From NCBI GenBank assembly GCA_964016885.1, contig OZ024740.1:295058001-295122000 (forward strand): DNA of 64,000 bases, written 5' to 3'. A program made the position numbers and the translations under genes. Every line of letters begins with the position of its first letter. Position 1 is the stretch's first letter. The notes under the pieces are model-generated. The model did no database searches. It saw only the letters and a program-made list of their open reading frames with translations, and had not been told where the DNA came from. Shown here one piece after another: positions 53,101 through 64,000 of this stretch. Origin of the DNA: Eledone cirrhosa (Eukaryota).

Positions 53101-53258
53101 ACACACACACACACACACACACACACACACACACACACACACACACACACACACACACACACACACACACACACACACACACACACACACACACACACAC
53201 ACACACACACACACACACACACACACACACATCTATCTATCTATCTATCTATCTATCT
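53101..53258 (+). repeat. (CA)n followed by (ATCT)n
   Basis: direct inspection. Confidence 0.95.
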
Positions 53259-53787
53259 AGTCCATTGTCATGATCAAACCGCCACCCTCCTTCAAAAACG
53301 AAGGAGAGGCGGTTTTCCTTTGTGTGATAGCTATGGCGAAAGAGGTTGTATGGTGGACAAGGTTGAAAGGGCTGAGGTCAGACACCTTTTTCTCCGGCCA
53401 ACAACTGATTCTTTTTTTCAAATACCACTTTGGAAGAAGAATCAGGATGGAGAGAGAGGTGCTGTACCCCAGCAAGTTTTATGAAAGGTGGGTGAAAGTG
53501 GCGAGAATGGCCCGAGTGAATGGGCCTTCTCTCTATATCAGCCTGTAGATTGAGGAAAAGGAGGAGGAGAGGAAAGGAGTACAAGCTCTTCGTACTCCTG
53601 AAGATGAGGGTTGCACATTTTTTTCGGGGGTATGTGTTACCCATATAAACTGTCTCCCTCTATTGGGGAAAATCGACTAACTTTTAAATTCCATCTGTGA
53701 TAACATTTTACACGTTTTTATTGTATGTAAACTTCCCCCTTTGTATTTGTCCCCTTCTTTTGTGCCCCTGTGGCTAATAAAGAAATA
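53259..53787 (+). mobile_element. Tx1 subfamily A, severely 5'-truncated copy (copy 2)
   Basis: near-identical to 58407-58935 (about 4 substitutions seen); (TATC)n on both sides. Confidence 0.95.
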
Positions 53788-53812
53788 TATCTATCTATCT
53801 ATCTATCTATCT

Positions 53813-59233: not shown

Positions 59234-61135
59234 ATGTTAAACGCAGCGAACGAAAATAGTGGTGGGGGGACAGCGGTAAGAGTTGTAAGCTCGCACGCTT
59301 TAGTCCTCCCTTCCTTCCCAACTAACGTCATAGAGAAGGAAGGAAAAATGAAAATAAAAACGGACGAATCTGCGGAGAAAAAATTAAATGACGAAAACAT
59401 AAATCTGGACTTGGATTCCAACAACGAAAAAAAAAAATTTGAAAAATTGCATGACAATACTAATAACACAAACAAAGACACAACAAACAAAAAAATAACA
59501 GTTGAAAATAACACCATATCAGAAAACAAAGCAGACGACAAGATCTCATTTGCACAGAAAACAAAGAAATCTTTGACTTATATAGCGGAAAACACTTCAG
59601 ATGTGGTACGAAGGATCACGGACGCAAAACAATACATAAGTGAAGGTGAGAATGGTATTTTATTGGTAAAAATGCCTCAAGAATTCACGAAAGACATTGA
59701 AAGCCGAACGGTCAAGTTTCGGACCATCAACAACAGTACAAAAAAACCTGAACAGCCTTCTCAAGCAGATATCAAAACAGTACTCACAGAAGTACTGAAT
59801 GAAACAACTTTCATAAGAAAAGACAGACTGTATGGAAGCCTAGCAATTATCATGAAGAACGAATCGGTGGCAAAAAAATGTGCTTTGTCACCGATTCGTT
59901 CGAAAAATTTCACCTTTTATCCATCTTATATGGGAAAAAAAACTCAACGCATATGGCTGGATGCAATGATGCCAGATGTGGACTACTGCTGGCTCATAGC
60001 TGGCTTCATCGATCCAGTGAATGACAACGTGATTTCCATTGGGAAAACCACAGGCAATGCGTTCAGTGGAACAGGTATAGAGCTGGTAGTACAAATGAAG
60101 CCTGAACGCATCGCCCAAATACCCGACAGAATCCTATTAGAGGACCACGGGTATATAAACATTAGCGTGGAGGGGAGAAGGCCGTCCTGCCATATCTGTG
60201 CAGGCAGAGGGCACCTGAAGGCCGCTTGTCCCCAACTCAACAAAAAGAAAACCCTGCTACCAACACCAGCTCCACCACCACCACCACAATAGATAAACAA
60301 ACAACAAAACTCAGTCCCACCCAACCCGTCCCTCAGTAAAACCACAACACCACCACAACACAAACAGTCACAACACATTACCCCAAAACAAAATACAGGC
60401 CCACCCAACCTCTCACTCAATAAAACAACACAACCACCGCAGACACAACACACAACACAGTCTAACATAGTGACATCCATCTCCCCCACAAAGAAAACCA
60501 ACACGGAAACATTACCAGCAAACATACCTCTTCCCTCCAACACTGAAGATAACCCAACGAATTCGGAGGAAGAAACGGAGTCCTTCAGACAGATTAAAAG
60601 GAAAAAAAGAAAACATGTGCAAAACACACAAGGACAAACAACCCCCACCCAAATCGCAACACAATCCAACAAAACAGAAAACACCCCTCCAGCAACAAAC
60701 AAAACCAAACCTGCCCCTCCCCTCTTCGAAACACTCACACCATCGGAAAAAAAGACATTACACTATACTTACATCAACAGAAACAATAATAAATTAAATG
60801 AACTCATATACAATAATCCTTCGGTACAAACCGAAGGTGTAAACTTTGTTTCGTCAGAAAACCACCCACATTTAAAACTAATAAAAATCCCAATGAACCT
60901 CTACCAAAAACTAAAAAAGGATTTTAAGGAGGACGTAGGACCACCCTCTGTCAAACCCATAAACCGCGTCCTACTAAAAAGCTTTCCCCCTCCCCTTCCC
61001 CTCCCCAACACAACTCCAAACACCCCAACCCCACCACACACTGACGACCCCACACCACCACAAGACACCCCTTCACCCAACACCCCCGACCCCATGGAAG
61101 TCGTGCAACCCGAACCCCGGGAAGCGGAAAGGTAG
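59234..61135 (+). pseudogene. Tx1 ORF1 (~633 codons) with one premature stop at 60290-60292
   Basis: ORFs 59234-60292 and 60470-61135 are in the same frame; TAG here corresponds to CAG in copy 1; CCHC knuckle. Confidence 0.88.
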
Positions 61136-61168
61136 GTCTCTACACTCTCCTTTGGCTCTGCCGCCCAC

Positions 61169-64000
61169 ATGGATGTGTTAAGAGTAGGATGTTTGAATGC
61201 ACGTGGCCTGGGCTCAACTTGGAAGCAAGCAAAGCTTCTAAATGACCTCAGGTCATGTAGTATAAATGTAATGGTTATCTGTGAGACTCGAATCAGCGTC
61301 ATGCGGCAGCTGGCCCCCACCTTCGATGACTTTGAGGTGCATGCATCTCTCTGTCAACCTGGAGGTGGGGGTGGGGTTGTCGTACTGCTGCAAAAACACC
61401 TGGGTCTTGCCGTACAGGTTGTGCACTCGGACCCGGAGGGTCGTTTGTTGGTGCTAGACGTTGGCAGTAGTGAAAGTGCGGCCTTGAGACTGGTCGCCGT
61501 CTACTCCCCTTTCGGAGCTGAACGGCCCGACTTCTTCCAGCGTTTGGAGACTTTTCTGGGAACGTCGCGTTCCCTGCTTCTAGCGGGGGATTGGAATGAC
61601 ATCCTGGATGCACGTTGGGACTATGCAGGAGCATGTCCTAATAGAGGGGGGTGTAACAGCCTCAAGGGGTTACTCGACCGTTTTAACTTGGTCGATAGAT
61701 ATCGACTAGATTTTCCAACTGTGCCTACCTGGACTTGGAGAAACCACAGTGGTCAATCTAGATCGTACTTAGATAGATTCTTAGTTAGAAGTAAGGATAG
61801 GGACATATTAAGCTGTCCAGAAATGCGCACGGTTGGCTACACGGATCACAAATTAGTGACCTGCGTGGTCAATCTCGAGAAAACACATAGACAGGGTCCC
61901 GGTTACTGGAAACTTAATTTGTCTTTACCGGCAAAAGAGACTTACAGAAACCGGATTAGCAGATTAGTTAAGGAGAGGTTGACGGGTGCAATCGTCAACA
62001 ACCGATGGTGGGCATCTCTCAAAAGAGAGATTAGAACAGAATCAATAAGTTATAGCAAGATGTTAGCTGCCGATAGGAATAGAAACGAGAAAGAATTAAC
62101 AGGTAAATTAGAAGAGGCAATCAAGAGCGAAGATGTGGCCAGAGTGCTGGCATCGAGGACGGCCTTGAACCAGTTTTTCGATGCAAAGCATGAAGGCTGC
62201 GTCATTCGAAGTAAAATACGTGCTCTAGGTAATGAGGGGGCCAAAGCCGTTGGATGGGCCCGCGTGACAGAAGCTAAGAGTGGAAATCGATCCACCATCC
62301 GGTCGTTGCAAGACGAAGATGGACGAGTGATCCGGGAGCCTAAGCAGATGTGCGAGGCCTTTCAAAAGCACTTTGCCCGATTGTTCGGGGGAGGCGAGGG
62401 TCCGGGCCGGGGCGTGGATTTCGGTCCATACCTCGACGGCCTGCCGCGTCTCTCGAACAAAGAGGCAGAGTCCTGCGAGGGACCAATCTCGGCTGATGAG
62501 ATCGGGGATGCGCTGAGCCAATGCAGCAGACGCAAATCTCCAGGTCTCGATGGTATACCTTACGAACTTTATTTAGCAATGCCGGTCTTCTTCTCCGAAC
62601 TCCTCGAAGCGGTCTACTGCAATTGGCAGCAGAACGGGAGAATTCCTTGTTCTGTAGCCAAGGGCGTAGTCACGCTGGTGAGGAAGGACGAGAACAAGGG
62701 GGATAGTATAAATAATTTTCGGCCCATAACCCTGCTAAACACAGAGTTAAAGATTTTGGCCAAGGTGTTAGCAAAGAGGTTGGCGCTTGTCGTGGGTGGC
62801 CTGGTGGGAGATGCGCAGACATGTGCTATCCCATCCAGGTCCATTCACGATAACCTCCACCTCATGCGATACATCATAGAGAGGGTTGGCAACAAACCCG
62901 GCTTCGGTGGGGCCCTGATTAACTTGGATCAGTCTAAGGCCTTCGATAGGGTCGACCATGGTTACCTGGATGCGGTGCTAGCGGCGGCTGGGTTCGGTCC
63001 TGTTTTCAGAGGCTGGATCACTGCCCTACATAGCAACCACATCTGTTCTAGGATCAAGGTGAACGGCTACCTTTCGAAGCCGTTCGAAATCACACGATCC
63101 ATTCGACAGGGGTGCCCTCTCTCCTCCCTTCTGTACGTATTGACTCTCAAGCCTTTACTGAGGAAGTTGGAGTTGTTGCAGGGTATCCCCCTGGAACCAG
63201 GATTGAGCAAAGCGGTGTCGGCCTACGCCGATGACGTAACAGTAATGGTATCAACCGACTCGGAGATCGAGGCGATCGGTACCTTACTGGAGGAGTACGA
63301 AAGGTTGTCAGGAGCGAAACTGAACCGGGAAAAATCCATCGGGCTGCAACTCGGAACGTGGAGAGGCAAACCGATGCCTCCTGACGGTGTCGTCGGACAC
63401 TGGACGGAGGACCCGGTAAAGTTGCTTGGGTCTGGTTTGGACCGGACCTCCAGGTGGAAAAGAACTGGAACGAGGTTACGAACAAGGTGTTTGCACTAAC
63501 CCAGAAATGGGCCAAGTGTAAGCTGTCCCTAAAAGGCCGGGCGGAGGTGGCGAACATTTACATAGCGTCCGTCACTTACTACCGCCTGACTGTCGTGCCT
63601 TGCCCTAAGGAAACACTCACCACCATGGAACGCATGCTCTTCCAATTTCTTTGGAAGAAGCGTCCTCCTATGGTGAGAAGATCCATCTGCTGCCAACAAC
63701 CTTCGAAAGGAGGGCTGGGGATGCCGTGGTTGATGATGCGTAGGCACGCATTAAGGCTACGGCACCTACAGGTATTCCTCACTGGTCAACCGGTGTGGGC
63801 TCCGTTTGTGAAACGAGCCTTTCCGAGACTCGTCTCACTCACCGAGCTACAGTCCTGGGTCAAGCAAAGATCCGGAAAACTGGGAGACTGGCACACTGAG
63901 TGTGCTCAGGCGCTCAGGGCTCTCTGGCAAGCGGGCCGGGCCATCGGTGGAGAATCCACCTCATCATTCTATAGAGGGCTGGTGGCTAGCAGGGGCGATG
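61169..64000 (+). pseudogene. Tx1 ORF2 (APE + RT), single -1 frameshift near 63428
   Basis: 776-aa ORF with all APE/RT motifs; TTGCTTGGGTC versus TTGCTTGGGGTC in copy 1 (could be a consensus error). Confidence 0.92.

Follow-up and report, generated by a model that had tools for sequence, protein, structure and literature searches.

The 64-kb stretch of the 3.0-Gb genome of Eledone cirrhosa analyzed here (contig OZ024740.1, positions 295,058,001 to 295,122,000; hereafter the window, to whose positions all coordinates refer) contains four young long interspersed nuclear elements (LINEs) of the L1 group, which encode an endonuclease, a reverse transcriptase (RT) and a zinc finger, and each of which is bounded by TATC runs on its sense strand. 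All five (TATC)n runs of three or more units on the plus strand abut a LINE end. This arrangement raises the question whether TATC microsatellites are a target into which the elements insert or a tail that they bring along, and by what means the site is chosen. Our reading is that these recently active LINEs, which are likely of the Tx1 clade, probably enter (TATC)n through a nick of the GATA strand at TC|TAT together with pairing of an RNA tail with the primer.

All four copies and the repeats flanking them lie on the plus strand. Copy 1 (subfamily A; 11332..16393) has an intact 5' end, is preceded by a (TATC)22 run (11238..11325), terminates AATAAAGAAATA and is followed by a (TATC)9 run (16394..16429); its open reading frame 2 (ORF2) is broken, and it has two internal deletions of about 516 nt and 236 nt. 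The other copies form an array. An (AC)65 microsatellite (53101..53231) lies ahead of its first TATC run, (TATC)6 (53234..53257), which forms the 5' flank of copy 2 and has no LINE ahead of it. Copy 2 (53259..53787) comprises only the 3'-most 529 nt of a subfamily B element and (TATC)6 (53788..53811) separates it from copy 3 (subfamily B; 53812..58935), which is without the first 720 nt. The identity of copies 2 and 3 to the full-length B copy of 5842 nt is 99.05% and 99.65%, and they begin at its nt 5316 and nt 721, respectively. In copy 3 an ORF1 remnant with a CCHC knuckle ends at 55225, and an intact ORF2 of 1145 amino acids (55259..58696) encodes an apurinic/apyrimidinic-type (APE) endonuclease, a reverse transcriptase and a C-terminal zinc finger, with a predicted L1 ORF2p-like fold. 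A (TATC)17 run (58936..59003) separates copy 3 from copy 4 (subfamily A; 59004..64000), which is full length (5817 nt to GAAA), has its end 820 nt beyond the window, where it reads GAAA-TC-TATC, and carries a stop in ORF1 near 60290 and a frameshift in ORF2 near 63430.

A first, sequence-only reading of this DNA had noticed TATC in the same orientation ahead of each young copy, and 22, 6, 6 and 17 units are indeed present. It had also described three copies lying head-to-tail, as is the case for copies 2 to 4, which have nothing but TATC in between; two clearly diverged subfamilies, A and B being about 79% identical; and visible 3' ends of the form AATAAA-GAAATA followed by TATC without poly(A). 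The three ends within the window read AATAAAGAAATA with TATC runs after them, and in none of 87 genomic copies do eight consecutive A occur within 40 nt of the end. That the pattern includes 5'-truncated copies is true of copies 2 and 3, whereas copies 1 and 4 have intact 5' ends. A constant GAAATA end was dropped, as the two-base spacer after GAAA differs by subfamily (TA, TC, CA, TT or TG); the constant end is thus AATAAAGAAA plus two bases.

TATC flanks of genomic copies

The best 40 genomic matches each to the B and A 3' ends were collected, 19 and 20 of these places were extended upstream, and the junctions were mapped, yielding 87 copies of which 86 have an intact end. Removal of 12 copies whose 5' end coincided with or passed the limit of the extracted stretch, and of four same-start duplicates, left a young set of 70 copies (50 truncated and 20 full-length), which includes the four copies of the window. 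A TATC 8-mer is present within 25 nt upstream of 38 of the 50 truncated copies (A 9/14, B 29/36) and of 19 of the 20 full-length copies, compared to 0.19% of positions in 60 evenly spaced 10-kb samples (600 kb) of the genome. In the same samples TA (7.8%), AC (1.2%) and TATG (1.1%) are 6-40 times commoner than TATC. GATA was found upstream of 0/70 copies, which makes the association strand-specific. The LINE family is therefore found in TATC microsatellites hundreds of times above chance (nominal binomial p about 1e-52, for copies that are not fully independent). The comparison of both flanks with the TATC background, which the sequence-only reading had proposed as a check, thus came out on the side of a target preference that is more than a tail. 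In a 600-kb random sample, 3/10 TATC run starts touch a LINE end, and LINEs may accordingly mark a sizeable share of TATC loci. On the minus strand of locus L118 (near 5914) a 10-nt LINE 3' tip lies within a TATC run.

A 16-mer that marks B-type 3' ends occurs 12,109 times genome-wide. Two bases and then TATCTA follow at 9,084 of these ends (75%), and TA followed by three TATC units at 1,668. From the first 100 listed B-type ends, 40 were taken as a replicate set unselected for flank or identity; they all lie within the initial 28 Mb of a single contig. After exclusion of three (an ATT-family tip and two taken from the wrong side) and of nine with unplaceable 5' ends, 28 remained; the test window took in the first few element bases. 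TATC is upstream of 15/28 copies of this older set (full-length 4/4, truncated 11/24), from which it follows that the TATC preference is strong but loose, and weaker in older copies. Random 5' flanks in most copies, named by the sequence-only reading as the outcome that would speak against a target, were not seen in the young set, but 13/24 older truncated copies have no TATC 8-mer at the 5' junction.

Arrays such as that of the window are common, with a same-strand relative within 400 nt of at least 41/70 young copies; this is a lower bound because many flanks are shorter than 400 nt. At L077, L091 and L094 the target-site duplication abuts or takes in the first bases of an older copy, which shows sequential insertion. 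At L007, L015 and L025 same-start neighbours are 100% identical and are best read as DNA duplication or assembly repeats. Since two subfamilies with three start points are mixed in the window array, insertion is the best account of how it was built. Arrays thus owe their growth to sequential insertion and, in part, to mere duplication of DNA. The proposal that each insertion regenerates a target so that arrays grow agrees with the insertions nested beside old copies but does not account for the same-start arrays. Tandem insertions sandwiching a duplication, as in the arrays here, are also described for SINEU-3 of crocodilians in the available portions of PMC4494074. In a B copy at L005 and L034 the first 300 nt, with a 20-nt deletion among them, match exactly the head of the divergent copy that directly follows. 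L034 had been considered as two subfamilies cut at one point, and this was dropped: its head is identical to the next copy at 300/300 positions, which points to duplication or to a switch of template to the neighbouring copy. One A insertion occurs, each time between identical flanks, at three places on one contig (L061, L062 and L079), and was thus copied within a larger duplicated segment.

Junctions and choice of the insertion site

In 86/86 intact 3' ends TAT occupies positions 3-5 after GAAA. Target-site duplications are visible where the flanks are not pure repeat, and they measure 8-20 bp in A (mostly 18-20 bp) and, among those with unique sequence, 10-21 bp in B. Duplications with unique sequence are, for example, 18, 19, 19, 20, 20, 21, 10 and 11 bp long. 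Where duplications begin two bases past GAAA, 17/17 begin with TAT and have TC before it, and six of them are without an adjacent upstream TATC unit. As the duplications mostly start at TC|TAT and put TATC on both sides, the upstream TATC is target and not tail. These data bear on an explanation without targeting, in which the TATC tail seeds microsatellites, and neighbours, duplication of DNA, selection or an assembly artefact account for the runs upstream. The three 100% identical tandem sets and the TATC frequency in the older truncated copies, well under that of the young set, are what it would lead one to expect. However, TATC is upstream of 22/32 young truncated copies that have no LINE within 400 nt upstream, against the background of 0.19%, the unique-sequence duplications tie the upstream TATC to the target, and the window array combines subfamilies 79% alike with different starts. 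This explanation is largely refuted, and we regard it as very improbable.

Target-primed reverse transcription is the standard insertion route of such elements. Together with the duplications at TC|TAT it suggests a first nick on the GATA strand opposite TC|TAT, and a second nick would follow about 10-20 nt downstream. The transcript would read through into the TATC run, its RNA 3' end would likely carry a few UAUC units, and this end would pair with the freed primer. TATC would be left on both sides of each insertion, so that later copies can land beside earlier ones. At L036, L052, L083 and L085, one of which lies in an AC repeat, 4-8 nt of TATC are present at the 3' junction and absent from the 5' side, which fits RNA that runs slightly into the repeat and pairs with the primer. 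The TATC run overlaps the element head by 1-6 nt in 23/32 truncated copies, an overlap that joining by microhomology would produce. Of the TCTAT sites in the background only 2.4% fall within TATC runs, and a cue longer than this 5-mer is therefore required; as a short endonuclease motif cannot alone explain the preference, RNA-primer pairing likely helps. The sequencing-run search listed no RNA run containing the element.

The relative weight of endonuclease and RNA can be judged from the same junctions. In one alternative, which takes up the mechanism of the sequence-only reading, recognition of the TATC repeat over 8 nt or more is left to the endonuclease, in the way that the Tx1L endonuclease reads its site, and RNA pairing is incidental. 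The TC upstream of the site is outside the region that a primer can pair with (17/17), and in vitro the Tx1L endonuclease nicks hardly anything but its own target (PMC1950540, in the text available), both of which agree with this mechanism, whereas the clean-duplication insertions at sites without a TATC run (L086, L001 and L074) and the RNA-like TATC additions at 3' junctions do not. Conversely, RNA-tail pairing might make nearly the whole choice, with a relaxed TA-cutter in all families and a target switch following from a new tail. Tail-guided site choice is discussed for RTE elements (PMC6007223, PMC13295347, in the portions available), and the model proposed in the first of these is similar, but pairing cannot select the TC upstream of the site. 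Moreover, TA runs are 40 times commoner, yet only 1/50 truncated copies lies in a pure TA run.

Several observations weigh against our own reading of a nick at TC|TAT assisted by pairing. No TATC 8-mer was found at the 5' junction of 12/50 young and 13/24 older truncated copies; the young set consists of the best-scoring copies, with all 40 B matches coming from a single contig; and TC ahead of the site is not universal, being replaced by TG in L052 and L085 and, by eye, by TT in L324 and GT in L330. L040, L041, L021 and L084 are without any duplication, and in L001 the insertion site is shifted. Furthermore, a TC-variant of the TATC run is common to 5/6 full-length B copies, which means that the element itself supplies part of the run upstream of them. 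Full-length B copies were discarded as evidence for targeting on account of this common leader, which is absent from A copies in which a unique duplication directly adjoins the 5' end.

Relatives at other repeats and classification

Random samples revealed relatives with the same AATAAA..GAAA end but different flanks. Family T is 72-75% identical to A and B, and its 3' end lies in ATT runs at 31/31 loci; ATT is upstream of 16/16 full-length and, as judged by eye, of 7/11 truncated copies. Family U was examined at 25 loci, including a degraded window copy without the end motif, and the end is TC-ATTATT at 24/24 loci bearing that motif. Both ORFs are open in 7/7 U copies taken, with ATT directly upstream in three and another relative upstream in four. 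The degraded window copy is an old relative with 66% identity to B (7482..8760, plus strand), whose best genomic matches are to this (ATT)n-associated family. Family C is 87% identical to B, but has TATCTATC after the end at only 2/25 loci and NN-TATAT at 22/25; 18/25 loci are situated within a degenerate minisatellite, and the 25 flanks are all different from one another. Other C-like ends are located in TATC runs. The minisatellite of C, seen at L286-L298, is composed of units that measure about 30-40 nt and have CTCTCTATATC as their core, and several of its loci share longer flanks, so that it may be internal to another transposon. The notion of a TATC-specific lineage therefore stands as far as the strand-specific target is concerned, but the specificity is not strict (11/24 in the older set) and the sister families use (ATT)n or a minisatellite.

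In a quick RT tree of 97 rows, A, B and C group together (99) with U as their sister (92) and T outside, which makes ATT the likely ancestral target with modest support; the node on which this depends has a Shimodaira-Hasegawa approximate likelihood ratio (SH-aLRT) of only 92 in a quick tree, a further point on the opposing side. In full-length matches the identity of the APE domain to that of B is 72-74% for A, 85-87% for C, 66% for U and 62-63% for T, with one intermediate A-like and one damaged C copy falling between these ranges. The catalytic residues are kept in all five families. A, B and C have NRSGTS or NHSGQS as the hairpin loop; in T and U it is NRIGSS. Nine residues lie between the anchoring T and S of the loop here, which is also the length in human L1, and 11 are given for Tx1L in the text available. 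In L1 this loop affects target choice (PMC1950540, in the portion available). The loop may change in step with the target, but this is one change on one branch and a lead only.

Such variation of the loop in step with the target (A, B and C versus T and U) would suit an endonuclease acting alone, but the correlation depends on that single branch and family C shares the loop of B while having a different flank; we consider this mechanism unlikely. The correspondence between the 3' repeat of each family and its flank would suit a choice made by the RNA tail, but family C retains a TC|TAT-like site in a degenerate satellite in which no two of the 25 flanks agree, and we consider a choice by the tail still less likely. 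Under the combined action of nick and pairing that we favour, the TATC preference would likely have arisen from an (ATT)n-targeting ancestor with the TAT core in common, and one derived branch would use the TATATC minisatellite. It is quite possible, although we lean slightly against it, that an undescribed young Tx1-like radiation switched targets at least twice in one genome, from (ATT)n to (TATC)n and on to the TATATC minisatellite, through few endonuclease changes (a candidate is the replacement of Ile by Ser at the tip of the hairpin) acting together with an RNA tail that the elements acquired by themselves.

Pfam recognizes Exo_endo_phos (residues 22-227), RVT_1 (511-755) and zf-RVT (976-1032) in the ORF2 protein of copy 3. 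Its best match by sequence among solved structures is human L1 ORF2p (E 1.8e-51, residues 4-856), compared to 7e-22 for R2, a comparison in which no full ORF2 of the CR1, RTE or I groups was among the solved proteins. An alignment-based model (predicted local distance difference test, pLDDT, 87.5) also has human L1 ORF2p as best fold match (E 5.6e-52). With truncation at different points in 50/70 copies, the target-site duplications, these ORF2 domains and an ORF2 nearer to L1 than to R2, the elements belong, as judged from their sequences, to the L1 group of APE-type retrotransposons that lack long terminal repeats (non-LTR). Compared to human LINE-1, the duplications are of similar length, but a poly(A) tail is absent, a CCHC knuckle is present in ORF1 and the target is TATC instead of TT|AAAA.

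Membership of the Tx1 clade is likely on the available sequences. In the tree of 97 RT regions, composed without Tx1L, Keno, Kibi and Koshi, the families of this genome and one unnamed protein form a clade (99); its sister consists of unnamed proteins about 40% identical, and the node that adds a fish protein bearing ZCCHC3-type domains has only 85. A CX2CX4HX4C knuckle is present in ORF1 of A, B, C, T and U, for which Pfam gives zf-CCHC at only E 0.18; an Atlas lead points to CCHC and ZCCHC3-type clusters at 0.90-0.92, and no ORF1 homologue was found at E 0.001 among 902 candidates. The fish protein P0042 joins an ORF2 to a ZCCHC3-type ORF1 that comes after it, the fusion to be expected from LINEs arrayed head-to-tail. 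Contigs of other organisms hold the element as well, with shares of 0.25-0.72 in ten organism codes beyond the best one. Two joints (X5 and X7) link a 3' end to an internal position, one of them via TCTATCTACGTC, and are weak hints only.

Waldo, Mino and Dong, of the R1 and R4 clades, likewise target microsatellites (ACAY, AC and TAA, respectively), and the repeat of Dong is that of T and U, whereas the ORF2 here is closest to L1 ORF2p. These three targets of other clades and the Tx1 targets TC, TTC, TTCC and TTTC are listed in PMC4494074 and PMC3812793, the three elements being in the list of PMC3812793; TG is a further target (PMC4640811). For these and the following comparisons, the statements refer to the available portions of the papers. 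The elements studied here work like Kibi on (TC)n and Koshi on (TTC)n, teleost Tx1 elements that are also APE-type non-LTR retrotransposons in microsatellites (PMC4494074, PMC3812793). They are not members of Kibi or Koshi by target: the flanks are TATC, ATT or TATATC, and not (TC)n, (TTC)n, (TTCC)n or (TTTC)n, a distinction drawn from target descriptions. The crocodilian Tx1 elements on (TTCC)n and (TTTC)n likewise have a tetranucleotide target as a preference and not a strict specificity (PMC4494074), but their targets are pyrimidine-only on one strand, whereas here a TA-rich repeat with a TAT core is used. The cut-off for preference in that study, more than 20% of flanks (PMC4494074), is exceeded here by the truncated copies of both sets (38/50 and 11/24). 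Tx1L of Xenopus and Tx1-Mar target sites inside DNA transposons (PMC4494074, PMC1950540), and the minisatellite of family C also seems part of a larger repeat. Octopus vulgaris has 80 L1-Tx1 families, of which 13 were recently active, in a paper whose main text is without the word 'target' (PMC13282606), and the portions of PMC10294476 and PMC5753468 available add nothing further on targets. In the literature searched, no Tx1 family was found to target TATC or GATA; Repbase and Dfam lay outside this search and may hold one. The TATC target and the close relatives with differing targets are new, while microsatellite targeting of the Kibi, Koshi and crocodilian Tx1 kind is known.

According to a review, the mechanism by which APE-type elements target microsatellites is not well understood (PMC3812793, in the portion available). 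Known element pairs with different targets are distant, and the relatives described here are likely a natural experiment on how such elements change target. As they are intact and recently active with different, countable targets (B ORF2; 7/7 U copies), the roles of endonuclease and RNA tail can be tested by swaps. If the target-switch reading is true, intact endonucleases that are 62-87% identical and differ in target would form a series already at hand with which APE specificity could be decoded and reprogrammed. With more than 12,000 ends of one subtype, the elements both break up and lengthen microsatellites of a rare class, a point of importance to users of TATC/GATA markers in this group of animals.

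Other repeats in the window

A SINE (short interspersed nuclear element) family with many copies, some of them tandem, is present at 160-343, 8835-9185, 18016-18408, 26296-26517 and 42318-42534, and ATT-family LINEs often adjoin the ends of its copies. The sole Rfam match is weak and tRNA-like (21314-21371). A hAT-type DNA transposon occupies 46726-49426 on the minus strand, with its transposase in three frames (Dimer_Tnp_hAT, E 4.2e-12). A fragment of another non-LTR element (3575-3933, minus strand), which we take from its motif to be the C-terminus of a restriction-like endonuclease type, is interrupted by a TATG run. A non-coding repeat of about 620 nt is found at 2879-3331, 4086-4707 and 4711-5028 on the plus strand and at 45649-46270 on the minus strand; it is variably 5'-truncated, ends GCAGCCACC-AT, has (TATG)n or (TA)n on both sides and also occurs in tandem stacks. 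A first look gave 2,030 candidates genome-wide, and at the 3' end runs of TATG or TA were seen at most of 25 loci, while the 5' end has them at many. This repeat is possibly a second microsatellite-targeting retroposon.

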